Assembly (NCBI GenBank): GCA_050257975.1
Contig: JBLMXY010000024.1
Coordinates: forward strand, 15,844 to 79,843
Direction: 5' to 3'
Source: Acidobacteriota bacterium
GTDB lineage: Bacteria; Acidobacteriota; Thermoanaerobaculia; UBA5066; Gp7-AA6
Length of the DNA: 64,000 nt
Position 1 is the first letter of the stretch; each line of letters starts with the position of its first letter. Of this stretch, positions 25,402-54,337 are shown piece by piece. The notes beneath the pieces were generated by a model. That model ran no database searches, was not told the DNA's origin, and saw only the letters and a program-made list of their open reading frames with translations. Made by a program: the position numbers and the translations under genes.

Positions 25402-25417
25402 TGCACTCCCCGTGCCA
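25402..25417 (-). promoter_or_regulatory. sigma54-type -24/-12 promoter candidate (ferritin-like gene)
   Basis: The minus strand reads TGGCACGGGGAGTGCA (GG-N10-GC). It ends 24 nt upstream of the ATG at 25377. Confidence 0.65.
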
Positions 25418-25507
25418 TCGCGACGGCGCGCTCCGCGAGCCTCTCGATCCGTGGCCGGAAGGGCCGCGGATCGGCCTCGAGCGGGCGCGGGGCCGCCCCG
25501 CGCGCCG

Positions 25508-25726
25508 TCACTTCCTCTTGCGAGATCCGCTCGACCGCTTCGGCACCTTGGCGCCGGATCGTCGCGCCTCGGAAAGACCGATCGCGATCGCCTGCTTGCG
25601 GCTCGTCACTTTCTTGCCGGACCGGCCGGAGCGAAGCGTGCCGCGCTTTCGCTCGCGCATCGCCCTCTCCACCTTCTCTTGCGCCTTCGGGCCGTAACGG
25701 CGCCTGCCCGATTTCGTCCTTGCCAT
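25508..25726 (-). CDS. DUF6496-like small basic protein
   Basis: MARTKSGRRRYGPKAQEKVERAMRERKRGTLRSGRSGKKVTSRKQAIAIGLSEARRSGAKVP. AGGAGG precedes it. The alternative ATG is at 25732. Confidence 0.7.
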   Translation of the reverse strand: MARTKSGRRRYGPKAQEKVERAMRERKRGTLRSGRSGKKVTSRKQAIAIGLSEARRSGAKVPKRSSGSRKRK

Positions 25727-25751
25727 GTCCATGCCTCCTTCGCGAAACTCG

Positions 25752-25767
25752 TGCAAGAGACGCGCCG
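25752..25767 (-). promoter_or_regulatory. sigma54-type promoter candidate (DUF6496 gene)
   Basis: The minus strand reads CGGCGCGTCTCTTGCA. It lies 19-25 nt upstream of the two candidate ATGs. Confidence 0.5.
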
Positions 25768-25851
25768 CGGTAGCGAGCCGCCGCGCGGCCCCCTGAAGGC
25801 AAGGAGCCTCCGGCGGGCCGTGGCTCACCGGAGCTGCCCTGCTCGACGCGA

Positions 25852-26094
25852 CTACTCGGCCTCCCGGCTTCCCGACGGGCCGCTGCCGCGCGAGGGCTCG
25901 TTCTGGCCGCTCTCCTCGCGGCCCGATGGCATGCCCGTGCCGCGCCCGGAACCGGGCTCTCGAGAGCCGGGCGCTTGACCCTCGCGTCCGTACTTGTCCC
26001 TCTCCCGCTCCTCCGACGGCTCGGTCGTTCCCGGCTTCCTGTCGCGGGGGTCTTCGCGTCTGATGTCCCGATCGCGATCCTCGAAATTCGGCAT
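25852..26094 (-). CDS. Small hydrophilic, low-complexity (hydrophilin-like) protein, paralogue 1
   Basis: 80 aa, MPNFEDRDRDIRREDPRDRKPGTTEPSEERERDKYGREGQAPGSREPGSG..., from the ATG at 26094. A paralogue lies at 45671..45922. Confidence 0.6.
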   Translation of the reverse strand: MPNFEDRDRDIRREDPRDRKPGTTEPSEERERDKYGREGQAPGSREPGSGRGTGMPSGREESGQNEPSRGSGPSGSREAE

Positions 26095-26145
26095 GGGTAT
26101 TCCCTTTTCCCGTCTGCCGGGCGTGATTGCCCGACTCTTCGCGAG

Positions 26146-26161
26146 CGCAGAATCCATGCCG
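26146..26161 (-). promoter_or_regulatory. sigma54-type promoter candidate (hydrophilin 1)
   Basis: The minus strand reads CGGCATGGATTCTGCG. It is near-identical to the site in front of the paralogue (GGGCATGGATCCTGCA) and lies 51 nt upstream of the ATG. Confidence 0.45.
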
Positions 26162-26182
26162 TTGCTTGCCCGCGGCCGTGCC

Positions 26183-26198
26183 TGGCAGCCGAATTGCT
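26183..26198 (+). promoter_or_regulatory. sigma54-type promoter candidate (ku)
   Basis: TGGCAGCCGAATTGCT, 31 nt upstream of the ku ATG. It is divergent from the site at 26146-26161. Confidence 0.65.
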
Positions 26199-26229
26199 GC
26201 TCGATTCCGATGGAAGAACAGGAGGTCTC

Positions 26230-27057
26230 ATGCGCCCCATGTGGAGCGGACACATTGCCTTCGGGTTGATCTCGATTCCCATCTCGCTAACCTCGGCGAT
26301 CGAGGCGTCCGAAAGAATCTCTTTTCGCCTGCTGCATCGCAAAGACCGCGCGCCGATCAAGTTCAAGAAGTTCTGCAGCAAGGAGAACGTGGAGGTCGAC
26401 AACGACGAGATCGTGCGGGGCTTTCAGACCGCGAAGGGCCGATTCGCCCTGGTCGAGAAGGAAGAGCTCGAGAAGGCCGCGGAGGAGGCGATCGGAGAGG
26501 ACGAGGAGGGAGCCGTGCAGGTGCTCGAATTCGTCCCGGCCGAGTCGCTCGATCCGGTCTCTCTCGACCACCCGTACTTCGTGCTGCCGCGCAAGGGAGG
26601 CGAGCGCGCGTACGCGGTCCTTCGGGCCGCGCTCTCCGAGTCCGACCGCGTGGGCGTGGCGCGGCTGCCGCTGCGCGGCCGCCCGACGCTGGCGGCGCTG
26701 CTTCCCGAACCCCGCGTGATCGCTCTGGTCACCCTGCGCCCCTTCGAGGAGCTGCGCGATCCGCAGGAGCTGTCCCTGCCCGCCTCCCGCGTCAATGCGG
26801 GCGAGGTCAAGATGGCGAAGCTCTTGATCGATCAGCTCTCTTCGGAAGGCTGGAAGCCCGCCGAACACCCCAGCGCCTACCACCGCGCCCTGCGCAGGCT
26901 CCTCTCGGCGAAGACTCCTTTCGACCTGAAGGCGGTGGCGCCGGAAAAGAAGGAGAAGGAGAACGTGATCGACCTGATGTCGGCGCTGCGTCAGAGCCTG
27001 GATCGGGCCAGGGAAAAGCCGCGGCGGGCCGCTTCGCGCCGGCGCGGCGCAGCGTGA
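26230..27057 (+). CDS. ku: Non-homologous end joining protein Ku
   Basis: 275 aa from the ATG at 26230 (GGAGG at 26221). It reads MRPMWSGHIAFGLISIPISL...FRLLHRKDRAPIKFKKFC, a typical bacterial Ku core with a basic C-terminal tail. Confidence 0.93.
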   Translation: MRPMWSGHIAFGLISIPISLTSAIEASERISFRLLHRKDRAPIKFKKFCSKENVEVDNDEIVRGFQTAKGRFALVEKEELEKAAEEAIGEDEEGAVQVLEFVPAESLDPVSLDHPYFVLPRKGGERAYAVLRAALSESDRVGVARLPLRGRPTLAALLPEPRVIALVTLRPFEELRDPQELSLPASRVNAGEVKMAKLLIDQLSSEGWKPAEHPSAYHRALRRLLSAKTPFDLKAVAPEKKEKENVIDLMSALRQSLDRAREKPRRAASRRRGAA

Positions 27058-27071: not shown

Positions 27072-27227
27072 TCAGGCGCTGAGCCTTCTCAACCCCGCGA
27101 TCAGGAAGAGCGAAGACACCGCCGCCGAAAGAGTGGCGAGCCAGCCAGCCAGCGGGCCCGCCGTCAAGAGACCCAGTGCCGCCAGCAGGACGGCAGCGGC
27201 GAAGAAGGCGAGCGAAACTCGAAACAT
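27072..27227 (-). CDS. Small membrane protein (51 aa, below ORF-track cutoff)
   Basis: MFRVSLAFFAAAVLLAALGLLTAGPLAGWLATLSAAVSSLFLIAGLRRLSA has two TM helices. GGAGG lies 7 nt upstream. Confidence 0.5.
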   Translation of the reverse strand: MFRVSLAFFAAAVLLAALGLLTAGPLAGWLATLSAAVSSLFLIAGLRRLSA

Positions 27228-27256: not shown

Positions 27257-27272
27257 TGCGAAAGACATGCCC
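27257..27272 (-). promoter_or_regulatory. sigma54-type promoter candidate (small membrane protein)
   Basis: The minus strand reads GGGCATGTCTTTCGCA, 29 nt upstream of the ATG at 27227. Confidence 0.45.
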
Positions 27273-27424: not shown

Positions 27425-28168
27425 TCAGGAAGCGAGCAGTGCGTCGATTTCCGGCAGGGAGATCTCGGCGCGCTCCGCGATCGCCAGGTCGACGCCGTCC
27501 GATGCGCCGGTCGCCTCGGGGTTGATCTCCGCGGTGAAGGCGCCGCGTCGGCGCGCCTCCGCGAAGAAGCCCGCCGCGGGATAGACGACCGAGGAGGTTC
27601 CCACCAGGAGGCACACGTCGCAGTCGAGCGCCGCGAGGGACCGCCGGAAGACCTCGGGGTCGATCGCCTCGCCGAACCAGACGACCCCGGGGCGCAGGAG
27701 CCCGCCGCAGTGCGGGCAGCGCGGCGGCATCTCCGGAAACGGCATGCGCTCGTCGCTCCACCGCACGGGCGACTTCTCGCAGGACTCCCAGCAGCCCACC
27801 TCCCAGAGGGAGCCGTGGAAGCGGATGACGCCGGAGGTTCCGGCGCGCTCGTGCAGGCCGTCCACGTTCTGCGTGATGAGCGCGAACCCCGGGAACCGGC
27901 GGCTCCAGGCCGCCAGCACCTCGTGGGCGCGGTTGGGCCGCGCGCGGGCCACGAGCTCGCGGCGCCAGGCGTACCACTCCCAGACGGTCCCGGGATTTCT
28001 CGCGAACGCTTCGGGGGTCGCGAGCTCTTCCGGGCGGAAGTCCTTCCAGAGACCGCCGGCGCCGCGGAAGGTCGGAATGCCGCTCGCGGCCGAAACGCCC
28101 GCGCCGGTGAGCACGGTGACGCGGCGGGCGCCGCGCAGGCGGGCCGCGAGCCGCTCGGCGGGCTTCAC
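27425..28168 (-). CDS. cobB: NAD-dependent protein deacylase (sirtuin, CobB/Sir2 family)
   Basis: A GTG at 28168 overlaps the GNAT stop (GTGA). It has GAGVSAASGIPTFRG, TQNVDGLH and the zinc ribbon CxxC...CPHCGG. Confidence 0.9.
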   Translation of the reverse strand: MKPAERLAARLRGARRVTVLTGAGVSAASGIPTFRGAGGLWKDFRPEELATPEAFARNPGTVWEWYAWRRELVARARPNRAHEVLAAWSRRFPGFALITQNVDGLHERAGTSGVIRFHGSLWEVGCWESCEKSPVRWSDERMPFPEMPPRCPHCGGLLRPGVVWFGEAIDPEVFRRSLAALDCDVCLLVGTSSVVYPAAGFFAEARRRGAFTAEINPEATGASDGVDLAIAERAEISLPEIDALLAS

Positions 28169-28884
28169 GGCTCGGCGCGCCGGAAGACGGCCAGCTCGTC
28201 CACCGGGGCAAACCCCAGGCTCTTCGCCATCGTCCGCGAGGCCACGTTCTCCTCGAGCGCGCCCCACACCGGCTCCTTGCCGTGGCGGCTCATGTGCTCG
28301 ATCAGGAACTCGCAGCACGCCCTGGCGAGGCCCTTGCCCCGATGCGCCTCGAGAGTGTCGATCGAGATGTCCCAGAGCCCCTCGGTCTCGTAGACGGCGT
28401 AGCAGAAGGAGACCGGCCGTTGCTCGACGAAGGCGGCGGCCACGTGCGAAAAGCCGAGCGCGGTCGAGATCTCCTCCCGAAGCGGCTCGGGCACGTGCGA
28501 GAGCGACGCGGCGTCGCGCCCGGAGAGCATCTCGACGCGCGCGGTCGAAGAGTCGGACGGGCCCGCGGAAACTCCTCCGCCTCTGCGCGAATGAATCACC
28601 GCCCGCGCGCGGGTCCAGCCCGGGAGCGCCGCGGCGAGGCTTTCGCTGGCGTCCGCCGCGCAGAGAACCGCGGTTGCGCCGAACCGCCGGGCGGCCGCTT
28701 CGAGCCCGGGCAAGGCCGGGTTGCCGGACACGCAGATGAGGCCGAAGTCCGTGCCGCGGGCGATGAAGTCGACCGGACCGGGTCCCGGCGCCTCCAGCAA
28801 CTCGGATCGGCCCGAGAGCAGCATCCCGCGCGTCTCGACCAGCCGCGGCAGATCCGGAAGCAGGGCCGCGAGCTTCGAGAGCAT
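28165..28884 (-). CDS. GNAT-family N-acetyltransferase
   Basis: 239 aa from the ATG at 28884. The C-terminal GNAT core reads HRGKGLARACCEFLIEHMSRHGKEPVWGALEENVASRTMAKSLGF. Confidence 0.8.
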   Translation of the reverse strand: MLSKLAALLPDLPRLVETRGMLLSGRSELLEAPGPGPVDFIARGTDFGLICVSGNPALPGLEAAARRFGATAVLCAADASESLAAALPGWTRARAVIHSRRGGGVSAGPSDSSTARVEMLSGRDAASLSHVPEPLREEISTALGFSHVAAAFVEQRPVSFCYAVYETEGLWDISIDTLEAHRGKGLARACCEFLIEHMSRHGKEPVWGALEENVASRTMAKSLGFAPVDELAVFRRAEP

Positions 28885-35132: not shown

Positions 35133-35218
35133 AGAAGAAGGCGCATGGCACTTTCGTGCCTTCCCGGTAGCACCCCGCGGCCATTGGCCTGGATTCGGCG
35201 GGCGCCTAACCTGACTCG

Positions 35219-35649: not shown

Positions 35650-36279
35650 TCAGCCGTTCGCGGCGACGAGGGCCGGCGCGGTTTCGCTGACCGCGCGATA
35701 GCGCTCGCCGATGTCCTCCCAGTCCCAGACGCTCCAGACGGCCTCGAAGAACTCCTTCTTGCGATTCTGGTACTGCAAGTAATACGCGTGCTCCCAGGCG
35801 TCGAGCACCATGATCGGCAACCCGCCCTGGGGGAGATTGGACTGGTGATCGTAGATCTGTGAGGCCAGGAGGCGCTGGGCGACCGGCTCCCAGATGAGGG
35901 CGGCCCATCCCGAGCCCATCACCGTCGCGGCGGTCTCCGTCATCTGGCGCCGGAACTTCTCGAAGCCTCCAAAGTCGCGGTCGATCGCGCGGGCGAGCTC
36001 CCCCTGCGGCTGGCCGCCGCCGTTGGGCGCGAGGTTTTGCCAGAAGAGCGAGTGCAGGACGTGACCCGACAGGTGGAAGGCGAGCGCCTTGTCCAGCGCC
36101 GCCAGCCGCGAGGAGTCCTCCTTCTCCCTCGCCTCGTCGAGCTTCTCCAGCGTCTCGTTGGCGCCCTTGACGTAGGCCGCGTGGTGCTTGTCGTGGTGGA
36201 GCTGCGTGATGCGGCCCGAAATGTGGGGCTCGAGCGCGCCGTAGTCGTATTCGAGGTCGGGCAATCGGTAGACGGCCAT
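35650..36279 (-). CDS. Fe/Mn superoxide dismutase
   Basis: MAVYRLPDLEYDYGALEPHISGRITQLHHDKHHAAYV...DAWEHAYYLQYQNR. The second ATG (36279) is preferred because of GGAGGAGG spacing. Confidence 0.95.
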   Translation of the reverse strand: MAVYRLPDLEYDYGALEPHISGRITQLHHDKHHAAYVKGANETLEKLDEAREKEDSSRLAALDKALAFHLSGHVLHSLFWQNLAPNGGGQPQGELARAIDRDFGGFEKFRRQMTETAATVMGSGWAALIWEPVAQRLLASQIYDHQSNLPQGGLPIMVLDAWEHAYYLQYQNRKKEFFEAVWSVWDWEDIGERYRAVSETAPALVAANG

Positions 36280-36304
36280 GGACATCCTCCTCCGAGTCTC
36301 CCGA

Positions 36305-36320
36305 AGCACGATCCGTGCCT
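36305..36320 (-). promoter_or_regulatory. sigma54-type promoter candidate (SOD)
   Basis: The minus strand reads AGGCACGGATCGTGCT, 25 nt upstream of the ATG at 36279. Confidence 0.5.
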
Positions 36321-36372: not shown

Positions 36373-36388
36373 TGGCATCGGCGTTGCT
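36373..36388 (+). promoter_or_regulatory. sigma54-type promoter candidate (hybrid histidine kinase)
   Basis: TGGCATCGGCGTTGCT, 32 nt upstream of the ATG at 36421. Confidence 0.65.
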
Positions 36389-36420: not shown

Positions 36421-39354
36421 ATGCTCAAGAGACCGATGAAACCCGGGGCCGGCGTCCGCACCGCGTTCGGCGTCACGCTCACGGCGATCCTACTGGTCGG
36501 CCTGGCCGTGGTCACCTACCAGAACGTCGTGCGACTGATCGAGGCGCGCGACCGGCTGGCGCACACGAACGACGTCCTGGACCAGGTCAACCGGCTGATG
36601 GCCGGCCTTCAGGATGCCGAGGTGGCGCAGCGCGACTACTTCCTGACGGGAAGCGAGGAGCGCCGGCTCGATTTCGACGCGAGCCGGGAGGCCCTCCCCG
36701 TTGAGCTGGGGCGCCTGCGGGAGCTCGTGCGCGACAACCCGGCACAGATTGGCCGCGTCACCCGGCTGGAGAGCCTCGTCTCCGAACGCATACGGCTGAT
36801 GCAGTCGAATGTCGCCCTGCGCCGGGAAAAGGGCCTCGACGCCGTCGCCACGGTCCTGTCCGGCAGTCTTTCCCGCAGCCAGGCGGGGAGCATCCGCGAC
36901 GTCGCCGCCCAGATCGAGGGCGAGGAGCGCCAGCTGCTCCAATTGCAGGGCACAGAGGCAGAGCGAACGGCCCGGGCCACGCTGATCTGGCTCGCCCTCG
37001 GGGGCGCCCTCCTCTTCCTCTTCCTCGGCCTGATCTGGGCCCTGATCCGGCTCGACCTTTTGAAACGGTGGGCGGCCGAAGAGGAGTCGCGTCGCGGCGA
37101 GGCCGAGCTGCGAACCACGCTGCGCAGCATCGGCGACGCGGTGCTGGCAACGGACGCCGCCGGCCGCGTGGCGTTCGTGAACCCCGTTGCGGAGCGCCTG
37201 ACCGGCTGGACGGAGTCCGAGGCCCTCGGCCGGAACGTGGGCGAAATCTTCCGGATCGTCAACGAGATCGACGGGAAGCCCGGCGGCGAGCTGGTCGAAC
37301 GGGTTCTGCGCGACGGCCGCGCCGTCGACCTGGGAAATCACATGACGCTGCTCGCCCGGGACGGCGAGGCGTGCCCGATCGCCGACAGCGCCGCGCCGAT
37401 CCGGGGGGGGGACGGGCGGATGCTCGGGGCCGTCATCGTCTTCCGCGACATCCGCGACAAACGCCAGGCCGATCGGGAGCTGCAACGGCTCGCTTCGATC
37501 GTTTCTTCCTCCGGCGACGCCATCATCGCGGAGGCCCTCGACACGACCATCACCGCTTGGAACGCGGGCGCCGAGCATCTCTTCGGCTACACGGCCGACG
37601 AGGTCCTGGGAAAGTCCGTCGCCATCCTCGAGCCGTCCGGAGACGAAGACAGCACCCTGTCGCGTCTCGCTCGAATCCGCCAGGGAAAGAGAATTCAGCA
37701 GTTCGACACAACGCGGATGCACAAGGACGGCCACCTCGTCGCCGTGTCGGTGTCCGTCTCGCCCATACGGGACGCGGAGGGAACCGTCGTCGGCGCTTCC
37801 AAGATCATCCGGGACATCACCGAGCGCAAGAAGGCGGAGCTCGCTCTGCGGGCGAGCGAGGAGCGATTCCGCGTGCTCTCGGATGCCGTCACCTCCCTGG
37901 TCTGGGCCTGCGACGACCAGGGAGCCGCCACCTACCTGAACCGGCGCTGGAGCGAGTACACGGGCCTCGACCCGGAGGACCTCCTGGGCGACGCCTGGAC
38001 CAGGGCCGTGCATCCGGAGGACCTGCCGGGCTGCCTCGAGCGCTGGCAATACAGCCTCGCAAGCGGTCAGCCTTACGAAGCCGACCTGCGGTTGCGCCGC
38101 CGCGACGGCTACTACCGCTGGTACGTGTGGCGCGCCGAGCGGATCCACTCCGAATCCGGCCCCCTCTGGATCGCCACGGCGACCGACATCGACGACCTGA
38201 AGAACACCGCCGCCGCGCTGCGCGAGGCCAAGGAAGCCGCGGAGGAGGCCAGCCGGGCGAAGGACCGGTTCCTCGCGGTCCTCTCCCACGAGCTGAGGAC
38301 GCCGCTGACGCCGGCGCTGGCGACCTCGCAGCTGCTGGAGCGACGGCGCGACATCTCCGAGGACGTCCGCCGGTCCCTGGAGCTGATCCGGCGAAACGTC
38401 GAGCTCGAAACGCTGCTCGTCGACGACCTGCTCGACCTGACCAAGATCAGCCGGGGGACGATCGAGCTGCGGCGCAAGCCCGAGGATCTCCACGCGGTGA
38501 TCCATCGCGTCGTCGACATCTGCCGCAGCGACCTGCTCGGGAAGCGGCAGCGGCTCACCCTGGATCTTCTCGCCGCCGAGCACCACGCGGAGGTCGATCC
38601 CGCCCGGATCCAGCAGGTCTTCTGGAATCTGCTGAAGAACGCGGTGAAGTTCACGCCGCAGGGGGGCGCCATCGCGATCCGGAGCGAGAACCCGGAGGCC
38701 GGCCGGATCCGGATCTCCGTCGCCGACAACGGAATGGGGATCCCGGCCGGCGTTCTGCCGAGAATCTTCGAACCCTTCGAGCAGGGGCCGCGCTCGATCA
38801 GTCCGCGCGTGGGCGGCCTGGGGCTGGGTCTCTCCATCTCCCGCACCCTCGTCGATCTGCACGGAGGCCGCATTCGGGCCGAGAGCGAGGGAGAGGGCAA
38901 GGGCGCAACGCTCTCCGTCGAGCTCGAGGCCTTCGAGGAGAAGCGGCTGACCTCCGCGGACGACGAGACCGGACGGCGCGCGCGCCCGAGGCGCCCCCTC
39001 GCGATCCTCCTCGTGGAAGACCATGCGGACACGGCCGGCGCCCTGACCCAGCTGCTGCGCGAGGAGGGGCACCGCGTGAAGTGCGTCGCGTCCGTCTCGG
39101 AGGCGGTCGACCTCTTCCGGAAAGAGACGTTCGACCTGCTCGTCACCGACCTTGGACTTCCAGACGGCAGCGGCCACGAGCTGCTCGGCGTTCTGCGCGC
39201 CATTCGGCCGATCCGCGGGATCGTCCTGTCCGGTTACGGAATGGACGCCGATGTCGCGCGAAGCCGGGCGGCGGGCTTTGCCGAGCATCTGACCAAGCCC
39301 GTGCAGATCTCGCTCCTTCTCGCGGCGATCGACCGGACCGGCGCCGAAGGCTGA
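36421..39354 (+). CDS. Hybrid sensor histidine kinase (CHASE3, multiple PAS, HisKA, HATPase, receiver)
   Basis: 977 aa with a TM-CHASE3-TM N-terminus, three PAS/PAC units, H-box FLAVLSHELRTPL, G-boxes, and a C-terminal REC domain (ILLVEDHADT...DLLVTDLGLPDGSG). Confidence 0.93.
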   Translation: MLKRPMKPGAGVRTAFGVTLTAILLVGLAVVTYQNVVRLIEARDRLAHTNDVLDQVNRLMAGLQDAEVAQRDYFLTGSEERRLDFDASREALPVELGRLRELVRDNPAQIGRVTRLESLVSERIRLMQSNVALRREKGLDAVATVLSGSLSRSQAGSIRDVAAQIEGEERQLLQLQGTEAERTARATLIWLALGGALLFLFLGLIWALIRLDLLKRWAAEEESRRGEAELRTTLRSIGDAVLATDAAGRVAFVNPVAERLTGWTESEALGRNVGEIFRIVNEIDGKPGGELVERVLRDGRAVDLGNHMTLLARDGEACPIADSAAPIRGGDGRMLGAVIVFRDIRDKRQADRELQRLASIVSSSGDAIIAEALDTTITAWNAGAEHLFGYTADEVLGKSVAILEPSGDEDSTLSRLARIRQGKRIQQFDTTRMHKDGHLVAVSVSVSPIRDAEGTVVGASKIIRDITERKKAELALRASEERFRVLSDAVTSLVWACDDQGAATYLNRRWSEYTGLDPEDLLGDAWTRAVHPEDLPGCLERWQYSLASGQPYEADLRLRRRDGYYRWYVWRAERIHSESGPLWIATATDIDDLKNTAAALREAKEAAEEASRAKDRFLAVLSHELRTPLTPALATSQLLERRRDISEDVRRSLELIRRNVELETLLVDDLLDLTKISRGTIELRRKPEDLHAVIHRVVDICRSDLLGKRQRLTLDLLAAEHHAEVDPARIQQVFWNLLKNAVKFTPQGGAIAIRSENPEAGRIRISVADNGMGIPAGVLPRIFEPFEQGPRSISPRVGGLGLGLSISRTLVDLHGGRIRAESEGEGKGATLSVELEAFEEKRLTSADDETGRRARPRRPLAILLVEDHADTAGALTQLLREEGHRVKCVASVSEAVDLFRKETFDLLVTDLGLPDGSGHELLGVLRAIRPIRGIVLSGYGMDADVARSRAAGFAEHLTKPVQISLLLAAIDRTGAEG

Positions 39355-41173: not shown

Positions 41174-41189
41174 CGGCACGGTCCTTGCT
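41174..41189 (+). promoter_or_regulatory. sigma54-type promoter candidate (secreted protein 41248)
   Basis: CGGCACGGTCCTTGCT, 58 nt upstream of the ATG at 41248. Confidence 0.6.
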
Positions 41190-42046: not shown

Positions 42047-42205
42047 ATGCCGATGAGCTGTCAACACCGAGGTTGCCGCTGCCAGGAGACGAACGTGGAG
42101 CGGGAGGGCCGCAAATTCTGCAGCGAGACGTGCGCGGAGATGGAGACGACGGGAGCCCATCGCGAACACTGCACGTGCGGCCACCTGGATTGCGCCGCGG
42201 TCTGA
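42047..42205 (+). CDS. Bacterial metallothionein-like protein (SmtA/BmtA type), 52 aa, below ORF-track cutoff
   Basis: MPMSCQHRGCRCQETNVEREGRKFCSETCAEMETTGAHREHCTCGHLDCAAV has 8 Cys and 4 His. The segment G-x-x-F-C-S-E-T-C-A parallels SmtA NGLYYCSEACA. GGAGGAG precedes it, and the alternative ATG is at 42053. Confidence 0.6.
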   Translation: MPMSCQHRGCRCQETNVEREGRKFCSETCAEMETTGAHREHCTCGHLDCAAV

Positions 42206-42307
42206 GCCTGCCACGAGCGACCCGCCCGATCCGGAATCGAAGAGAGTCGAAGCAACGCTGCGGGCTCGCCGCAGCGACACATTGACAACGTTCCAAGGAG
42301 GTACGTG

Positions 42308-42673
42308 ATGAAAACCGTTCTCGACGAGCCGCGCGTCTTGTCCTCGACCACGCTCAAGGGCGATCTGGTCCGCAACGGCGCGGGCGAGAAGCTCGGGAAG
42401 ATCGAGGAGATCATGATCGACCTGCCGACCGGGCGCGTCGGCTACGCGGTTCTCTCGTTCGGGGGATTCCTCGGCGTCGGAGACAAGCTGTTCGCGATTC
42501 CCTGGGAGGCTCTTGCGCTCGACACCGAGAGCCATGAGTTCATCCTGAACGTGGACCGGAAGGTGCTCGAAAACGCGCCCGGCTTCGACAAGAATGACTG
42601 GCCCGACTTCGCCGACCGAACCTGGGGCGCCGGGATCTACGGCTACTACGGCTACAAGCCCTACTGGCAGTAG
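42308..42673 (+). CDS. PRC-barrel domain protein
   Basis: LKGDLVRNGAGEKLGKIEEIMIDLPTGRVGYAVLSFGGFLGVGDKLFAIPWEAL. AAGGAGG lies upstream. The track start at GTG 42305 is the alternative. Confidence 0.88.
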   Translation: MKTVLDEPRVLSSTTLKGDLVRNGAGEKLGKIEEIMIDLPTGRVGYAVLSFGGFLGVGDKLFAIPWEALALDTESHEFILNVDRKVLENAPGFDKNDWPDFADRTWGAGIYGYYGYKPYWQ

Positions 42674-42737: not shown

Positions 42738-42887
42738 TCAGACGACCGTTCTCCCCTGCAGCAGGCGGATCACCAGGACGATGATCGCGAGCACGAGAAG
42801 AATGTGGATGAAGCCCGAGATCGTGTAGCCGGAAACCAGGCCTAGCAACCAGAGCACGAGCAGGATCACGAAGATCGTCCACAGCAT
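42738..42887 (-). CDS. lmo0937-family small membrane protein (49 aa, below ORF-track cutoff)
   Basis: MLWTIFVILLVLWLLGLVSGYTISGFIHILLVLAIIVLVIRLLQGRTVV. Confidence 0.75.
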   Translation of the reverse strand: MLWTIFVILLVLWLLGLVSGYTISGFIHILLVLAIIVLVIRLLQGRTVV

Positions 42888-42947: not shown

Positions 42948-42963
42948 AGCGAAAACCGTGCCA
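42948..42963 (-). promoter_or_regulatory. sigma54-type promoter candidate (lmo0937-like gene)
   Basis: The minus strand reads TGGCACGGTTTTCGCT, 60 nt upstream of the ATG at 42887. Confidence 0.6.
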
Positions 42964-43034: not shown

Positions 43035-44297
43035 CTAGCCGGCCCGGCGCGCTCCGCGGGCCGGCCCCCTCGGCCCGGCCGACTTCGGCTTCTTCGTCTC
43101 GGACCCTCCGGCCTGTCTTGCTTGAGCCGGAGCGGATGGAAGCAGCTTTTCGACCACTTCGGCCAGAATCGTGTCGCCCTCGGTCATGATGTAGGCGCGG
43201 TGCACCATGTTCCGCAGCTCCCGGACGTTGCCCGGCCACTCGGATCGCTGAAGGAGCTCCATCGCCCGCGGCTCGAACCGGAGCACGCCCTGCTTTTCCT
43301 GCTCCTCGACTTCCCTGCGAAAGTGCTCCGCCAGCAGCGGGATGTCCTCCGGGCGCTCCTTGAGCGCCGGAAGGCTCAGCGGAAAGACGTTCAGCCGATA
43401 GAAGAGATCCTCGCGGAGCTTGCCCTCCCGCACGCCCTCCCGCGGGTCGCGGTTGGTCGCCGAGAGCAGACGCACGTCGGTCGCGATATCCTGCGAGCCA
43501 CCCACGCGCCGGAGGGTTCGCTCCTCGAGCACCCGAAGCAGCCGCACCTGCAGCTCGGCGCTCATCTCGGTGATCTCGTCGAGAAAGAGAGTTCCCCCGT
43601 TGGCCTCCTCGAAGTACCCGACGCGCCGCCGGTCCGCTCCGGTGAAGGATCCGCGCTCGTGGCCGAACAACTCGCTCTCGATCAGCGTCGGCGAGACGGC
43701 GCCGCAGTTGAAGGCCACGAAGGGTTTGCCCGCGCGCCGGGAGAGCCGGTGAATCGTTCGCGCGGCGACCTCCTTGCCGCTGCCCGAGGGACCCGTGATC
43801 AGGACGGGCGCGTTCGTTCGGGCGACGCGGCGCAGCTCTTCGAAGACTCTCTGCATGGCCTCGGACCGCCCCACCATCTCGCCCAGGCGGCCGGTCTCCT
43901 GAAGCTCGCTGCGCAGCGTGTCGACTTCGAGTTCCAGCCGACGGCGCTCGGAGATCCGCTGGTAGACGGCCTCGAGCTGCGCGGGCCGCAGGGGCTTGAG
44001 CAGATAGTCCGCGGCGCCGGCGCGAAGGGCCTCGATGGCGTGATCGATCGAGCTCGATCCCGTCAGGACGACGGCCTCGAGCTCCGGCTGCGCCTCGCGG
44101 GCGGCCCTCAGGATCTCCAGGCCGTCCCCGTCGGGGAGAGCGATGTCCACGATCAGCAGGTGCGGCTGAAACCGGGATAGCTCGGCCTGCGCCTGCTTCG
44201 CCGTGCCGACCGCGCGCGGTTCTCCCCCGTACCCCTGGACCGCCTCTGCCAGGCCGCGGCGGGTGCCGGGATCGTCTTCGACGATCAGAGTCTTCAT
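43035..44297 (-). CDS. sigma54-dependent response regulator (receiver plus AAA+ activator) without a recognisable DNA-binding domain
   Basis: 420 aa with REC (LLIVDIALPDGDG), Walker A GPSGSGKE, the sigma54-contact loop ESELFGHERGSFTGA, and sensor II PGNVRELRN. About 55 low-complexity residues follow and no Fis-type HTH. Confidence 0.92.
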   Translation of the reverse strand: MKTLIVEDDPGTRRGLAEAVQGYGGEPRAVGTAKQAQAELSRFQPHLLIVDIALPDGDGLEILRAAREAQPELEAVVLTGSSSIDHAIEALRAGAADYLLKPLRPAQLEAVYQRISERRRLELEVDTLRSELQETGRLGEMVGRSEAMQRVFEELRRVARTNAPVLITGPSGSGKEVAARTIHRLSRRAGKPFVAFNCGAVSPTLIESELFGHERGSFTGADRRRVGYFEEANGGTLFLDEITEMSAELQVRLLRVLEERTLRRVGGSQDIATDVRLLSATNRDPREGVREGKLREDLFYRLNVFPLSLPALKERPEDIPLLAEHFRREVEEQEKQGVLRFEPRAMELLQRSEWPGNVRELRNMVHRAYIMTEGDTILAEVVEKLLPSAPAQARQAGGSETKKPKSAGPRGPARGARRAG

Positions 44298-44551
44298 CGC
44301 GGCGCGGATCCCCCGGCGGCCGAGGGCTCGCCCAGCATCTCGGCTCTCCCGCGCTCGAACAGGTCGAAGGCTCGGGTCAGCTCCCGCCGGGCGCTCGCAA
44401 GAGCGTCGGTGGGATCCTCCCCCTTCGCGACACGGCGGGTCGCCGTCTCGAGCTGCAGCGCAACAGCCGAGAGGGGAGCCGCCAGATCGTGCAGGAACCG
44501 GCGAAGCCTCCCTGCGGGATCCGGCTCGGGCGCCTTCTGGTCTCGTCTCAT
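44294..44551 (-). CDS. Stand-alone DHp/HisKA-like protein (85 aa)
   Basis: It has the H-box-like FLHDLAAPLSAV followed by a second helix, with no ATPase domain. The stop overlaps the activator start (ATGA). Confidence 0.55.
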   Translation of the reverse strand: MRRDQKAPEPDPAGRLRRFLHDLAAPLSAVALQLETATRRVAKGEDPTDALASARRELTRAFDLFERGRAEMLGEPSAAGGSAPR

Positions 44552-44665: not shown

Positions 44666-45322
44666 CTACGCCTTGCCCTTGTAGCGGGCCACGACGGTCA
44701 CCTGGTTTCCGGCATCCCCCTTTCGATACGAGACCTTCACGCGGTCCCCCACGGCCACGGGACCGGCCATGGACGCGTTCTCGTCCAGATCGAAGCGGTA
44801 CTCCTTGTTGTCGGGACCGGTCACGACGATTTTCTTGCCCGGGTCGAACTCCTTGACGACGCCGACGACGGTCTCCGTCTTCACCTTCGTGTCGGCCGCT
44901 CCGGGCACCTTGTGCTTGACCGTCGTCTCGGAATGCGAACGGGGCATCGTGGCGGCGCCCATGGCCTCTTCGGAAGCCGCCGAAATCACGGTCACGTGCT
45001 CGCGGCCGTCGGCGTCCTTGCGATAGGAGACGTCCGCCATCTGGCCCTCGACGATCGTCCCCTCGACCTTCGCGCCCTCGTCGAGATCGAAGGAGTAGGT
45101 CTTGTCGTTCGGCCCGGAGATCTTGATCTTCTTGCCGGACTCGTACTCCTTGACCGTCCCGTGCACCTTCTCGATCTTGACCTTGTCGTTGGGGCCGGGC
45201 CCCGTGTGCTTGACGACCGACTCCGTATGCGTCTTCGTCTGCGGGGAACTCGCGTCTTGAGCGAGAACGAGTGCCCCGGCGCCGAGCAACAGAGCCGCCG
45301 ATGCGCCGATGATGCGTTTCAT
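44666..45322 (-). CDS. Secreted protein made of two tandem ~90-aa beta-rich repeats
   Basis: 218 aa with a signal peptide. Repeat 1 is HTESVVKHTGPGPNDKVKIEKVHGTVKEYESGKKIKISGPNDKTYSFDLDE and repeat 2 is HSETTVKHKVPGAADTKVKTETVVGVVKEFDPGKKIVVTGPDNKEYRFDLDE. Confidence 0.7.
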   Translation of the reverse strand: MKRIIGASAALLLGAGALVLAQDASSPQTKTHTESVVKHTGPGPNDKVKIEKVHGTVKEYESGKKIKISGPNDKTYSFDLDEGAKVEGTIVEGQMADVSYRKDADGREHVTVISAASEEAMGAATMPRSHSETTVKHKVPGAADTKVKTETVVGVVKEFDPGKKIVVTGPDNKEYRFDLDENASMAGPVAVGDRVKVSYRKGDAGNQVTVVARYKGKA

Positions 45323-45394: not shown

Positions 45395-45589
45395 TCAGGC
45401 GGTCGGCCGCCGGCGCACCAGGACGAGACTCAAGAGCCCGGCCGTCAACGCCAGCACGATGTGCATCAGGCCGGACACGCCGTAAAGAACGACCAGACCG
45501 AGGATCGAGAGAATCAGCAGCGACGCGATCAGATCCCGCAGCAAATCGATCGAGCCTCCCGACAAGAGCCAAAGCAAATTGCCTGCCAT
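45395..45589 (-). CDS. Small membrane protein (hypothetical)
   Basis: 64 aa with two hydrophobic helices. Confidence 0.45.
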   Translation of the reverse strand: MAGNLLWLLSGGSIDLLRDLIASLLILSILGLVVLYGVSGLMHIVLALTAGLLSLVLVRRRPTA

Positions 45590-45670: not shown

Positions 45671-45922
45671 CTACCGCTCTTCTTCGGCGTCGGAAGAGCC
45701 CTGGCCGCTCGAGCCGGAACGCTGCCCGGTCCGGCCGCCCCGCTCCCGCTCGCGGCCCGAGGAACCCGATTCCTCGCCCGGGATCCCCGACGTGCTCTTG
45801 TCTCGCCCCTCGCGGGAATACTCGTCGCTTCCCTGGTGCGGACCGGGAGTCGTCTGCTTCTCTTTTTCCCCGGGATCACCACGCCTCAAGGACTCGCGAT
45901 TGCGATCGCTCTCATTCGCCAT
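45671..45922 (-). CDS. Small hydrophilic, low-complexity (hydrophilin-like) protein, paralogue 2
   Basis: 83 aa, MANESDRNRESLRRGDPGEKEKQTTPGPHQGSDEYSREGRDKSTSGIPGEESGSSGRERERGGRTGQ. GGAAGGAG lies upstream. Confidence 0.6.
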   Translation of the reverse strand: MANESDRNRESLRRGDPGEKEKQTTPGPHQGSDEYSREGRDKSTSGIPGEESGSSGRERERGGRTGQRSGSSGQGSSDAEEER

Positions 45923-46280
45923 GACGGTCTCCTTCCGAATGTCGGGCTCCATTGCCCGGGGCCCGGGAGGCTGCAGGATCCATGCCCGTGGGGGCGCGAG
46001 GGATCCCCTCCAGACGGAGAGACGAACGCGGTCTGCGCCCCCGAAGAATCTCGACGTCCGTCTGATCGGCGCCGCGCTTCGCCAGCACGTCGATCGTTTC
46101 CTCGCCGACCCGCAGGTCTTCCAGCTTCACCCAATCGACAAAGGACGGCAGGAACGGGCGATCGGACTGGATCGGCCGCCGCGCTGCCCGAATGGAGATC
46201 CCCGGGCAGGCCTGCAGCGTCAAGAAGACCGCGCCGGCCCGGCGTTCGAAACCGCAGAGAACCTCCGGCATGCCGAGCAT
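45912..46280 (-). CDS. Doubtful hypothetical ORF
   Basis: The frame is open with moderate GC3 and no recognisable domain. Its 3' third contains the hydrophilin-2 promoter candidate, so it may be shorter or non-coding. Confidence 0.25.
   Translation of the reverse strand: MLGMPEVLCGFERRAGAVFLTLQACPGISIRAARRPIQSDRPFLPSFVDWVKLEDLRVGEETIDVLAKRGADQTDVEILRGRRPRSSLRLEGIPRAPTGMDPAASRAPGNGARHSEGDRHGE
45972..45987 (-). promoter_or_regulatory. sigma54-type promoter candidate (hydrophilin 2)
   Basis: The minus strand reads GGGCATGGATCCTGCA, 49 nt upstream of the ATG at 45922. Confidence 0.5.
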
Positions 46281-49086: not shown

Positions 49087-49388
49087 GGCGCCACGGGCGG
49101 AACGCTCAGGAAATCGCTCGGCGGCCGAGCCGCTTTGCCGGGATTCAAACGGAGCTCCGGAGCGAATGTTATCCAGACTTTCAGAGCCGCGAAACCTACC
49201 ACGACCGCGACCGGGGCGATGGAACGCCTCGGCCGACGGCGAATCTAACCTGAAGCTAAATCGGCGCGCCGATGCGATCTTCGCAGGGGACAGCGTTGAC
49301 TCCCGGCGAGGTCAGGCATCGCCGTCACGGCTCCCTGGCGGCGGACAGGAGACGCCGTTTTCTCGCGCTTTGAGATCGTCTCGTCGGC

Positions 49389-50177
49389 GTGCAAGCCCTG
49401 GCCCGACGTTTGCTGATCTTCGCGTCGCGGAGGCACCCGACAATCGAGAAGGCAAGGTTCTTCGCCTCGACGTTCGCCCGATGCCCCGGGCGCCGGCGGC
49501 TTTCCGTCGCTCTCTTCTTCTTCATCCTGGCCGGCGCCGCGGCCGGGCTCGATCGCGCTCCCGCCGTGAAGATCCAGGACCTGGACGGGAGACCCTTCTC
49601 GCTCGATTCCTTGAAAGGCAAGGTCGTCGTGCTCGACTTCTGGGCGTCCTGGTGCGTCCCCTGCCGGACGAGCTTTCCCTTCCTCGACACCCTGCAGGCG
49701 AGGTACGGCGCGCAGGGACTGGCCGCCGTCGGGCTGACCCTCGAGGAGGATGGCGATGCCGTGCGCGCCTTTCTCGAGCAGGTGCCTGTCCGCTTTCCGA
49801 TCGTCCGCGATCCCACGGGGCGGGCGGGAGAGGCGTTCCGGGTCGTCGCGATGCCGACGACCTTTCTTCTCGATCGGGAGGGGCGCGTCGCCGCGCGGTT
49901 CGAGGGAGGAGACCGGCGCACGCACGCGGGAATCGCGGCGGCGGTTCCGATTCTTCTGTCGGGACGGCCCCTGCCGGAGGGCACCGGCGTGCGCGTCGGG
50001 GCCGGTCTGGAGGCGACGAGCCGGGTCAAGGCGTGGCAGCGCGGCTACCTGGCGGACCCCTCCATGAACCTCGACGGCGACCCCATCACGCGGGTCCTGC
50101 GCGAGCACATCCACGCCAGCAAGGAGGCGGCGGCCGGCGACGGCGGCGCGGCCGGGGGCGGTTGTGGCTGCAACTGA
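49389..50177 (+). CDS. TlpA-like thiol-disulfide oxidoreductase fused to a C-terminal DUF4266-like module
   Basis: It has a TM/signal segment, the thioredoxin core VVLDFWASWCVPCRTSFP, and a C-terminal KAWQRGYLADPSMNLDGDPITRVLREHIHASKEAAAGDGGAAGGGCGCN, which matches the DUF4266 signature ending GGGCGCN. GTG start. Confidence 0.78.
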   Translation: MQALARRLLIFASRRHPTIEKARFFASTFARCPGRRRLSVALFFFILAGAAAGLDRAPAVKIQDLDGRPFSLDSLKGKVVVLDFWASWCVPCRTSFPFLDTLQARYGAQGLAAVGLTLEEDGDAVRAFLEQVPVRFPIVRDPTGRAGEAFRVVAMPTTFLLDREGRVAARFEGGDRRTHAGIAAAVPILLSGRPLPEGTGVRVGAGLEATSRVKAWQRGYLADPSMNLDGDPITRVLREHIHASKEAAAGDGGAAGGGCGCN

Positions 50178-52370: not shown

Positions 52371-52396
52371 TCGGCGAGCCTCGGAGAGCTCCCGGC

Positions 52397-52594
52397 CTAC
52401 CAGCCCCAGTCCATGTCGCGCAGACCCGGCAAGCGGATGACGTATCCGCCCTGCGGTCGGGGACTCCGTCCGCCGCTCCCGTCGTTCTCTTCCCGGTACC
52501 CGGGGGGAACGTCGAGCGTCGGATCATCGTCGTCCGGCTGGCGGCTCGGCCGCCTCACGGGGATCTCTTCGTCGAGAACGTCGTACTCGTGCAT
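52397..52594 (-). CDS. Small acidic hypothetical protein
   Basis: 65 aa from the ATG at 52594, with GAGGAGGAGG upstream. It lies downstream of the DUF3309 gene. Confidence 0.4.
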   Translation of the reverse strand: MHEYDVLDEEIPVRRPSRQPDDDDPTLDVPPGYREENDGSGGRSPRPQGGYVIRLPGLRDMDWGW

Positions 52595-52626
52595 GAGCGC
52601 CTCCTCCTCTTCTGCCGGCGCGCCGC

Positions 52627-52779
52627 CTACACCCGGCCCGTCAGGACCAGGATCACCACGATGAGCAGGACCAGACCGAGCACGCCGCTCGGCCAGTAGC
52701 CCCAGCTCCGGTTGTAGGGCCACGCGGGAACCGCTCCCACCAGCAGGAGGATCAGAAGGATCAGGAGTATCAGACCCAT
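52627..52779 (-). CDS. DUF3309-family small membrane protein (50 aa, below ORF-track cutoff)
   Basis: MGLILLILLILLLVGAVPAWPYNRSWGYWPSGVLGLVLLIVVILVLTGRV. AAGGAGG lies upstream. Confidence 0.75.
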   Translation of the reverse strand: MGLILLILLILLLVGAVPAWPYNRSWGYWPSGVLGLVLLIVVILVLTGRV

Positions 52780-52815
52780 GCTCGCCTCCTTTCACTCGAG
52801 GCCATCGCAGGCAAA

Positions 52816-52831
52816 TGCGGGATCCGTGCCA
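52816..52831 (-). promoter_or_regulatory. sigma54-type promoter candidate (DUF3309 operon)
   Basis: The minus strand reads TGGCACGGATCCCGCA, 36 nt upstream of the ATG at 52779. Confidence 0.55.
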
Positions 52832-52841
52832 CCGCTCCAGG

Positions 52842-52857
52842 TGGCACGCCGCTTGCG
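52842..52857 (+). promoter_or_regulatory. Orphan sigma54-type promoter candidate with no downstream ORF
   Basis: TGGCACGCCGCTTGCG is an exact TGGCAC-N5-TTGC match. It lies 10 nt from the divergent site at 52816-52831 and points into the 3' end of the minus-strand AI-2E gene. Confidence 0.4.
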
Positions 52858-52992
52858 GCGTGGGGCTGTCGGACGCCTGCTCGGGAGCAGGCCGCGGCCA
52901 GCGCCCGTTTTCACCGTTTCCGGGCGCGAAGCGGGATCCCAAGCGCAACGGTGTCAGGATCCGGCGGTGCGGCTGCTCCCGGGCCGGGCGCT

Positions 52993-54285
52993 TCAATCCG
53001 CGGCGGCTCGCGCCCGTCGCCCCGAGACCCCGTGGACCGGATCCGCGGAATGTCTTTCTCCGCGTAGCACCTTCTCGACGACCCGATCGCTCTTCCCGTC
53101 CAGGGCGGCCGCTTCCAGCGCGGAATGGTCTTTCAGGACCTCGTCGCTCAAGGAGTCCTTCAGCCAGACCCGCTCGACGATCGGGTAGGCCGCGACGACC
53201 GGCAGGACGAGCAGCACCCCGGGAATGCCGAAGAGGCTCCCGCCGACAATCAGGGTCACGAGCACGGCCAGGCCCGACAGCCGCAGCCGCTTGCCGTACA
53301 CCCTCGGGATGATCACGTAGTTCTCGAGCAGGTGGTAGAGGCTGTAGAGGACGATCACGACGCCTGCGGTCAGCGGGGAAACCGTCAAGGCCAGAAGCGC
53401 GGCCGGCGCGGCGGAGACGATGAAGCCGAGGACCGGGATGACGTCGCCCGCCGCCGCAAGCAGCGCCAGCGGCACGGACGCCGGGACTCGCAGGATCGTC
53501 AGCACGGTGAAGGCGAAGAGCCCGTAGAGGAACGACGTCAGGATCTGTCCCTGAACGTACGCCACGACCACGTCCGAGACTTCCGGGATCGTCTCCGCCA
53601 TTTTCTTGCGATGCTCGCGGGGAACGTAGGCGAGAAGCCACGCGTAGACGCTCTTGCCGTCGAGCAGCAGATACAGCACCAGAACGAGCAGGAGCGCGCC
53701 GCCGGTCAGACCGACGACGGCCGCGCGGCCCCAGGCGAGCGGCCTCTTCAGGGACGCCGCGACCTCGGGAGACGAGGGGAGATCCAGGATCTGGACCGCG
53801 ACCTGCTTCAAGAAGGGATATTGCGTCGCGAGCTGGCCTTCGACGCGCTCGCGGTAGACGCGATAGTTGGACGCGAGCGCGGAGACCTGCGCCGTCAGGG
53901 ACGGAAGCACGAGCGCGAGGAATCCTCCGACGGCGGCGAGAAGGAGAACGCCGATGACGCCGACCGCGACCGCTCGCGACAGACCGCGCCGCTCCAGAAA
54001 GGAAACCGCAGGCGCCAGAGTGATTCCAAGCAGAATCGCCAGAACGAAGAGGAAGAGCTCGGGCAGAAGCCGCACCACGGCCCAGGCGAGAGTGACCGTC
54101 AGGAGGACCTTCACGATCGTGACCAGGGGCACGCGGATCTCGACCCGCCGCACGGGCCGCCCGGGGAGAGCTTCGACAGGGAGTTCGGACACGAGTTTCT
54201 TGCCCACGAGCGTCCGTGAAGCAAGAGCCGGGCCGGCTTTGAAGCGATCCTGGGTCCCTCGGTCGTCCTCGCCGAAGAATGGCAT
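52993..54285 (-). CDS. AI-2E family transporter (PerM/UPF0118)
   Basis: It is polytopic (8 TM segments) with typical AI-2E topology. The ATG at 54285 is the most upstream plausible start, and an internal GTG start is possible. Confidence 0.82.
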   Translation of the reverse strand: MPFFGEDDRGTQDRFKAGPALASRTLVGKKLVSELPVEALPGRPVRRVEIRVPLVTIVKVLLTVTLAWAVVRLLPELFLFVLAILLGITLAPAVSFLERRGLSRAVAVGVIGVLLLAAVGGFLALVLPSLTAQVSALASNYRVYRERVEGQLATQYPFLKQVAVQILDLPSSPEVAASLKRPLAWGRAAVVGLTGGALLLVLVLYLLLDGKSVYAWLLAYVPREHRKKMAETIPEVSDVVVAYVQGQILTSFLYGLFAFTVLTILRVPASVPLALLAAAGDVIPVLGFIVSAAPAALLALTVSPLTAGVVIVLYSLYHLLENYVIIPRVYGKRLRLSGLAVLVTLIVGGSLFGIPGVLLVLPVVAAYPIVERVWLKDSLSDEVLKDHSALEAAALDGKSDRVVEKVLRGERHSADPVHGVSGRRARAAAD

Positions 54286-54321
54286 GGCGAGCTTGTGCGT
54301 CGCGCCGACAGGCGCATCGGG

Positions 54322-54337
54322 TGGCACTGCGATTGCA
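54322..54337 (+). promoter_or_regulatory. sigma54-type promoter candidate (DUF11-like lipoprotein)
   Basis: TGGCACTGCGATTGCA is an exact consensus match, 44 nt upstream of the ATG at 54382. Confidence 0.7.

Follow-up and report, generated by a model that had tools for sequence, protein, structure and literature searches.

General stress regulons include PhyR-NepR-EcfG in Alphaproteobacteria, SigB in Firmicutes, and RpoS in Gammaproteobacteria, all of which rely on a sigma-70-family factor that is freed by partner switching or controlled by proteolysis. Acidobacteria are among the most abundant soil phyla, and no general stress regulator is known to have been defined for them; literature searches likewise found none. 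Here, we analyzed a 64-kb stretch of DNA from an Acidobacteriota bacterium (contig JBLMXY010000024.1; the whole stretch is referred to as the window) that contains a dense series of -24/-12 sites of the sigma-54 type. The region probably carries a sigma-54-dependent regulon of stress-protection genes, run by a local activator that is fed by a phosphorelay and lacks a DNA-binding domain. The EcfG, SigB, and RpoS regulons overlap the window genes in Ku, BON/OsmY-like, PRC-barrel, DUF1328, and lmo0937/DUF5670-type proteins, superoxide dismutase (SOD), ferritin-like proteins, and hydrophilins. Unlike the sigma-70-family wiring of those systems, the window promoters are of the -24/-12 type and are accompanied by an ATP-dependent activator, so that expression of the genes would require phosphorylation of the activator.

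The closest described counterparts of such an activator are FlgR of Helicobacter pylori and CtcC of Chlamydia, which belong to organisms with small genomes and a single sigma-54 activator, so that promoter specificity is no issue there. Like the activator in the window, FlgR and CtcC consist of a receiver and an AAA+ domain without a helix-turn-helix (HTH) domain, and activators that lack a DNA-binding domain are classed as type Ic by Francke et al. 2011 (PMC3162934). They are phosphorylated by a cognate kinase, and one activator serves many sigma-54 promoters with no enhancer, a mode of action that we propose here from sequence. In Chlamydia, the CtcC regulon goes along with the change to a cell form that is resistant and does not grow (PMC7482065). 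The targets of FlgR and CtcC are flagellar or developmental genes, whereas those in the window are stress-protection genes of a soil acidobacterium. The window system also differs in the Lys/Arg-rich tail of its activator and in a small protein, made up of a dimerization/histidine-phosphotransfer (DHp) domain only, whose gene precedes that of the activator.

A gene map of the window was drawn from codon usage, and genes were named by Pfam. The G+C content is 70% across the whole window, and the "intergenic" fraction makes up ~12% of it (18% within 25-55 kb). Matches to TGGCAC-N5-TTGC with no more than one mismatch number 14, compared to 1.89 ± 1.53 in 100 dinucleotide-preserving shuffles of the window (largest shuffle, 7), and 13 of the 14 are intergenic despite the small size of that fraction, all of them within 25.4-54.3 kb. 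As a second scoring, a weighted sigma-54 consensus score was applied, with the expectation taken from Markov simulations. Scores of at least 11 were obtained at 17 positions, where 1.7 are expected; 16 of these are intergenic, all of them between 25,402 and 54,337, and 12 of the 16 lie on the coding strand, 19 to 97 nucleotides (nt) 5′ of a start codon. Every site has GG and GC at a distance of exactly 10 nt, in a match to TGGCAC-N5-TTGCW. Matches scoring 8 to 11, on the other hand, are as dense in coding as in intergenic DNA (~1.4 per kb).

The original prediction, made from the sequence alone, had listed 17 such sites, all but one in front of a gene, and described the genes as general-stress genes. 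All 17 are present with the coordinates and strands it gave, recomputing the gaps between site and start codon returned the same 19- to 97-nt range, and, as it counted, ten of them are within one mismatch. Twelve of its sites are among the 15 that we class as strong (no more than two mismatches to TGGCAC-N5-TTGCW and correct GG-GC spacing), and it missed three good ones: 39591(-), 41987(-), and 45588(-). The other five, 25767(-), 26161(-), 27272(-), 41154(-), and 45987(-), are not individually significant because their score range is equally dense in coding DNA; position and orientation are all that speaks for them. As for the gene families it named, Ku, DUF6496, Fe/Mn SOD, Iron_permease, BON, DUF1328, PRC, DUF5670, DUF3309, and DUF11 were recovered by Pfam, while the ferritin-like and metallothionein assignments correspond to weak matches. 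The sites and the genes that follow them are listed below (ORF, open reading frame; aa, amino acids).

25402-25417, minus strand: strong site TGGCACGGGGAGTGCA, 24 nt before a ferritin-like/DUF892-like gene at 24700-25377 (minus strand; weak Pfam match to COQ7/DUF892).
25752-25767, minus strand: weak site CGGCGCGTCTCTTGCA (score 10.8), 19 nt before a DUF6496 gene at 25508-25732 (minus strand; Pfam).
26146-26161, minus strand: weak site CGGCATGGATTCTGCG (score 8.4), 51 nt before the gene for an 80-aa hydrophilin at 25852-26094 (minus strand); back to back with the Ku promoter.
26183-26198, plus strand: strong site TGGCAGCCGAATTGCT, 31 nt before ku at 26230-27057 (plus strand; Pfam Ku).
27257-27272, minus strand: weak site GGGCATGTCTTTCGCA (score 9.2), 29 nt before the gene for a 51-aa membrane protein at 27072-27227 (minus strand).
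36305-36320, minus strand: strong site AGGCACGGATCGTGCT, 19 nt before an Fe/Mn SOD gene at 35650-36285 (minus strand; Pfam Sod_Fe_N/C).
36373-36388, plus strand: strong site TGGCATCGGCGTTGCT, 32 nt before a hybrid histidine kinase gene at 36421-39354 (plus strand).
39576-39591, minus strand: perfect site TGGCACCCGTCTTGCT, with no convincing ORF 3′ of it; 13 nt from the 39605(+) site, back to back.
39605-39620, plus strand: strong site TGGAACGGGACTTGCT, 27 nt before an Iron_permease-family gene at 39648-40115 (plus strand; Pfam).
40117-40132, plus strand: strong site TGGCACGCGCCATGCT, 97 nt before a BON lipoprotein gene at 40230-40550 (plus strand), which is followed by a DUF1328 gene at 40565-40765 (plus strand; Pfam).
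41139-41154, minus strand: weak site GGGCAGAGAACAGGCA (score 9.6), 5′ of a Thr-rich lipoprotein gene at 40868-41068 (minus strand).
41128-41143, minus strand: better candidate AGGCATGCCTCCTGCA, overlapping the preceding site and 5′ of the same Thr-rich lipoprotein gene, whose orthologue in locus L005 (see below) has AGGAACGGATCTTGCA upstream.
41174-41189, plus strand: strong site CGGCACGGTCCTTGCT, 58 nt before the gene for a 96-aa secreted protein at 41248-41538 (plus strand).
41972-41987, minus strand: strong site CGGCACGTTTTCTGCA, with only a coding remnant 3′ of it, a 42-aa otsA relic at 41697-41813 (minus strand).
42008-42023, plus strand: strong site TGGCAGGCGAATTGCT, 23 nt before a Cys-rich metallothionein-like gene at 42047-42205 (plus strand), which is followed by a PRC-barrel gene at 42305-42673 (plus strand).
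42948-42963, minus strand: strong site TGGCACGGTTTTCGCT, 60 nt before a DUF5670 gene at 42738-42887 (minus strand); the best conserved promoter of the set.
45573-45588, minus strand: strong site TGGCAGGCAATTTGCT, 28 nt before the gene for a 49-aa membrane protein at 45395-45544 (minus strand); synteny in L004 and L005.
45972-45987, minus strand: weak site GGGCATGGATCCTGCA (score 9.6), 49 nt before the gene for an 83-aa hydrophilin at 45671-45922 (minus strand), a paralogue of the hydrophilin at 25852-26094; hydrophilins were called by composition.
52816-52831, minus strand: strong site TGGCACGGATCCCGCA, 36 nt before a DUF3309 gene at 52627-52779 (minus strand; Pfam).
52842-52857, plus strand: perfect site TGGCACGCCGCTTGCG, with no ORF; the DUF3309 site lies 10 nt away on the other strand.
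54322-54337, plus strand: perfect site TGGCACTGCGATTGCA, 44 nt before a DUF11 lipoprotein gene at 54382-54855 (plus strand; Pfam DUF11).

To place these sites in context, they were compared with a set of 161 loci fetched around homologs of the window activator (individual loci carry L numbers), 14 of which are orthologous loci. The closest relatives of the activator (67 to 79% identity) come from metagenome-assembled genomes (MAGs) labeled Acidobacteriota or Thermoanaerobaculia, mostly from soil. The orthologous loci hold 26 strong sites compared to 4.5 expected. When the sequences upstream of DUF5670 in the window and seven orthologous loci were aligned, the only conserved blocks were TGGCA(C/T)-N-T(C/T)GC, the ribosome-binding site, and the start codon, with diverging flanks; counting the window and every fetched locus, there are 16 copies of DUF5670, and 14 of them are preceded, at a distance of 30 to 69 nt, by a site with a score of 10 or more. 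Upstream of the metallothionein-like gene, the TGGCAGGCGAATTGCT of the window recurs unchanged in L082 and nearly so in L004 and L005, where ku follows the gene. The motif also precedes, in L004/L005, genes for a BON-domain hydrophilin, a 71-aa hydrophilin, a Thr-rich lipoprotein, a receiver protein, and trehalose-6-phosphate synthase (Glyco_transf_20). In the orthologous loci, consistent adjacency to the activator is limited to DUF5670 and the genes directly 5′ of the activator. The conserved DUF5670 and metallothionein-like promoters, the excess of sites in the orthologous loci, and the presence of an activator amid the cluster uphold the original assignment of the sites to sigma-54.

Three proteins encoded in the window could connect a signal to these promoters.

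36421-39354, plus strand: hybrid sensor kinase with CHASE3, three PAS, HisKA, and HATPase_c domains and a C-terminal receiver (Pfam).
43035-44297, minus strand: sigma-54 activator composed of a receiver, an AAA+ sigma-54 interaction domain, and an AAA lid, followed by a 27-aa tail rich in Lys, Arg, Pro, and Ala.
44294-44551, minus strand: DHp-only ORF of 85 aa, overlapping the activator start codon by 4 nt, with the H-box FLHDLAAPLSAV.

The activator matches Response_reg, Sigma54_activat (8.9e-70), and AAA_lid_14 in Pfam. Its Walker motifs (GPSGSGKE and LFLDEI) are intact, the GSFTGA loop is present, as it is in 126 of 162 homologs, and the DD, D51, T, and K residues of the receiver are in place. 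No Pfam match to an HTH_8/Fis-type DNA-binding domain was found in it. The Lys/Arg-rich C-terminal tail is shared by the window activator and all 13 orthologues with a complete C terminus (7 genome and 6 metagenome sequences), whereas all 73 distant homologs among the genome loci (L008-L080; ~50% identity) carry a Fis-type HTH (LGIS.KTLYNRL). The window activator thus belongs to a clade of activators without a DNA-binding domain. Having only a basic tail in its place, it would act without a specific upstream enhancer.

Divergent, back-to-back sites form six pairs, with gaps of 10, 13, 19, 20, 21, and 52 nt, and approximately half of the sites are unpaired. Because the two members of five pairs are only 10 to 21 nt apart, no room is left for an enhancer between the paired promoters. 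No 6- to 8-mer exceeded random-window controls as a candidate shared enhancer in the 160 nt upstream of 15 promoters. The tight pairs and the lack of a common k-mer both fit activation from solution, and neither proves it.

The 85-aa ORF is, as far as homology tells, the DHp-only remnant of a small soluble histidine kinase that is intact in other relatives. At its position, L002, L003, L006, L007, L087, and L088 encode a homologous kinase of ~210 to 230 aa, with Pfam HisKA and HATPase_c in the two full-length relatives scanned (L002 and L088), while only the DHp part is kept in the window, L001, L004, L005, L082, and L083. The H-box histidine (His21) is invariant in the DHp alignment. We propose that the 85-aa protein acts as a histidine phosphotransferase. 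Spo0B and ChpT are histidine phosphotransferases that derive from histidine kinases, operate between two receivers, and keep a degenerate catalytic-like domain. The 85-aa protein resembles them in having a DHp domain without a working kinase domain and differs in having no catalytic-like domain at all; its putative role in a relay is deduced from the intact kinases to which it is homologous and whose genes occupy the same position, and from the hybrid kinase encoded in the window. The C-terminal receiver of that kinase fits a relay from kinase to receiver to DHp protein to activator, an order that is itself deduced. The genes at 44666-45322 and 44294-44551 and the activator follow the 45588(-) site on the same strand, and they may be co-transcribed from it together with 45395-45544.

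The sites, their enrichment and conservation, the domain architectures, and the gene families are direct readings of the sequence, and from them we infer how the regulon may work. The CHASE3-PAS hybrid kinase (36421-39354) would sense a signal, which may be stationary phase, osmotic stress, or desiccation, and would pass phosphate via its own receiver to the DHp-only protein (44294-44551), which would hand it to the receiver of the activator (43035-44297). The activator would then remodel sigma-54 holoenzyme already bound at the promoters, with no specific upstream enhancer, and since no enhancer would be needed, one activator could serve many promoters, including the back-to-back pairs 10 to 21 nt apart. 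The predicted regulon would comprise ~15 strong promoters and up to five weaker ones, which precede mostly very small genes. Its putative targets are Ku, Fe/Mn SOD, the ferritin-like protein, the BON lipoprotein with DUF1328, and the PRC-barrel protein with the Cys-rich metallothionein-like peptide, in addition to the Iron_permease-family protein, DUF5670, DUF3309, other tiny membrane proteins, two hydrophilins, and several lipoproteins or secreted proteins. The site 32 nt upstream of the kinase gene, together with the position of the activator at the end of the string of genes behind 45588(-), suggests positive feedback, in which sigma-54 promoters would drive the kinase gene and probably also the activator operon.

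The original prediction had also called the gene set a general-stress or desiccation regulon. The gene content fits that label, being typical of EcfG, SigB, or RpoS regulons (Ku, SOD, BON, DUF1328, PRC, DUF5670, DUF3309, and Iron_permease by Pfam, and the hydrophilins), and relatives add OtsA and a BON hydrophilin; gene content is also its entire basis. There is no anti-sigma or PhyR-like gene among the annotated genes of the window, and no sigma-70-like promoter was found in 38-55 kb. The analysis suggests that a soil acidobacterium runs a general-stress-type program through sigma-54 and not through a dedicated stress sigma factor.

Several observations weigh against a single regulon under this activator. 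The link from the activator to the promoters is drawn from proximity and conservation only. No rpoN gene lies in the 64-kb window or the 14 orthologous loci, and its presence in the genome is assumed, with the intact sigma-54 interaction domain of the activator as no more than an indirect pointer. The soil acidobacterium probably has several other sigma-54 activators, and an activator without a DNA-binding domain would cross-activate with respect to the promoters of those activators, unless specificity comes from elsewhere. The k-mer search for enhancers was crude and could miss degenerate or promoter-specific sites. Five of the sites are weak, and three strong ones, 39591(-), 41987(-), and 52842(+), lack an intact gene. 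On the side of the relay, the 85-aa ORF matches HisKA at E = 0.008, below the Pfam threshold, and a sequence search of the PDB with the DHp alignment returned chance matches only.

Under the main rival explanation, the sites are real sigma-54 promoters that do not form one regulon: several enhancer-binding activators encoded elsewhere would control subsets of them, and the local activator would serve only neighbors such as DUF5670. This would agree with the observation that just DUF5670 and the genes immediately upstream of the activator keep their place beside it in the orthologous loci, with the presence of unrelated Sir2, GNAT, AMP-binding enzyme, and sulfatase genes among the promoter-bearing genes, and with the simplicity of the enhancer search, which was a k-mer count. 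We nevertheless regard it as unlikely. The window activator and its 13 complete orthologues lack a DNA-binding domain, five divergent pairs leave no space for an enhancer between their members, and in other loci and phyla, too, the motif near homologous activators is followed by metallothionein-like, Ku, BON, hydrophilin, lipoprotein, OtsA, PRC, and DUF1328 genes.

Two further explanations dispute that the sites are promoters and are effectively excluded for the strong ones. The motif could be bound by a different protein, such as a dimeric regulator that recognizes inverted GTGCCA...TGGCAC, as the six inverted pairs and a GGCAC-TTTC-GTGCC palindrome at 35146-35161 might indicate, but this is very improbable given that the spacing of the pairs varies from 10 to 52 nt, that approximately half of the sites are unpaired, that the spacing in the palindrome is wrong, and that the sites have an invariant 10-nt GG-GC distance, match TGGCAC-N5-TTGCW, and lie at promoter distance on the coding strand. 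The chance that the matches are accidents of GC-rich sequence or members of an intergenic repeat family is negligible: the window is 70% G+C and weak matches are as frequent within genes as between them, but none of the 100 shuffles reaches the 14 matches observed, 13 of which fall in 12% of the sequence, and the sites are conserved in other genomes, have flanks unlike each other, and are covered by no repeat family in a BLAST of the window against itself and a repeat search.

The proposed regulon of the window has an HTH-bearing parallel outside the Acidobacteria. RSp1667 and RSp1668 of Ralstonia solanacearum and their equivalents in Burkholderiales are ~50% identical to the window activator and share its GSFTGA loop, which Lundgren et al. 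noted in both proteins (PMC4676750). The R. solanacearum megaplasmid locus contains a hybrid kinase, rpoN2 (RSp1671), two activators, and DUF1328. Unlike the window activator, the Burkholderiales activators keep the Fis-type HTH, and no rpoN lies near the acidobacterial activators, unlike in the rpoN2 loci. Most of the HTH-bearing homologs belong to Burkholderiales, and others to Binatia, Myxococcota-like MAGs, and Usitatibacter. Their surroundings are likewise dense in sigma-54 sites: the first 80 of the fetched loci contain 251, compared to ~36 expected. Behind such sites are PRC, BON, DUF1328, Iron_permease, DUF883, CsbD-like, KGG-like, OtsA-like, and glycosyltransferase genes (assigned partly by eye); DUF3309 and Ku occur near the HTH-bearing activators, not directly behind a scored site. 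Of the 161 fetched loci, 30 have a second rpoN within 10 kb, in many cases with a sigma-54 site in front of it, and the R. solanacearum rpoN2 locus belongs to these 30; a strong site precedes the gene in the Burkholderiales loci L025 (5815-7314, minus strand), L028, L036, L056, L058, L061, L064, L074, L079, and L081.

A broader proposal, offered tentatively and with somewhat more doubt than confidence, is that this acidobacterial lineage has no dedicated stress sigma factor and runs its stress or dormancy program through sigma-54 and a phosphorelay-fed activator without a DNA-binding domain, which acts at dozens of promoters without enhancers, while Burkholderiales and other phyla have kept the same ancestral module as an HTH-bearing activator with a private RpoN2. 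Lundgren et al. found no role for rpoN2 in the metabolism or virulence of R. solanacearum, its deletion having no phenotype in either (PMC4676750). If true, a shared module would explain the function of RpoN2 in Ralstonia and its relatives, and the comparison predicts that the second rpoN of Ralstonia and related Burkholderiales serves survival of drying, osmotic stress, or stationary phase.

Sigma-54 regulons and activators without a DNA-binding domain are already known. What is new is that both appear to serve genes of the general-stress type in a free-living soil phylum, that a putative relay protein consists of a DHp domain only, and that the system can be linked to RpoN2 loci; no description of a sigma-54 general stress regulon in Acidobacteria or of an rpoN2 regulon in Burkholderiales was found in the literature searched. 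Transcription from sigma-54 promoters requires an activator, so that a stress regulon of this kind would behave as an ATP-gated, all-or-none switch reinforced by positive feedback. Such a switch, if true, differs in kind from the graded sigma competition of RpoS, SigB, or EcfG. Promoter specificity is a further question, as the genome probably encodes several other sigma-54 activators besides the one that lacks a DNA-binding domain.

The three strong sites without an intact gene differ in what follows them. The remnant behind 41987(-), at 41697-41813 on the minus strand, encodes 42 aa that are 60% identical to the N terminus of the intact trehalose-6-phosphate synthase of L004, and this promoter has outlived its decayed otsA gene. 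Behind 39591(-), no conserved ORF was found in the 220-nt gap after the hybrid kinase gene, and the sequence folds no better than shuffles (z = -0.6). A GC-rich hairpin at ~39413-39440 could end a transcript of ~150 nt from this site. The 128 nt that follow 52842(+), at 52868-52995 on the plus strand, fold far better than shuffles (z = -3.7, 0/200) and adjoin the 3′ end of the convergent AI-2E transporter gene, where the terminator of that gene must lie; the segment could be a small RNA, an antisense transcript, or the terminator. No Rfam family matched in the window.

The two paralogous 49-aa membrane proteins at 42738-42887 and 45395-45544 are alike 5′ of their -24 elements (aagaagattcctcgcg and cagaaggattcgccgcga), which suggests that gene and promoter were duplicated together. 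The hydrophilin genes at 25852-26094 and 45671-45922 share GGCATGGAT.CTGC sites.

Three further candidate sites were set aside. The match at 49399(+) is probably due to chance, as the redoxin gene has no in-frame start codons other than the two that this match overlaps (GTG 49389 and TTG 49410), and the one at 54220-54235 on the minus strand, 5′ of the AI-2E transporter gene, was left out since it ends 12 nt from the presumed start. The palindrome at 35146-35161 was rejected as a sigma-54 site for its GG-GC spacing of 9 nt; it is located directly 5′ of the sulfatase start codon, in a gap common with a divergent gene at 35249.

Other features of the window were recorded in passing. Genes for a Sir2-family deacetylase and a GNAT acetyltransferase at 27425-28884 on the minus strand overlap by 4 nt and lie amid the stress genes, with no sigma-54 site. 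The intergenic region at 49087-49400, 5′ of a redoxin-DUF4266/DUF3570/ApbE operon, is unusually long (~310 nt) and less GC-rich. At 58640-63964 on the minus strand, a 1,774-aa protein combines two GH94 supersandwich domains with a GH94 catalytic domain and a glucoamylase-like domain.

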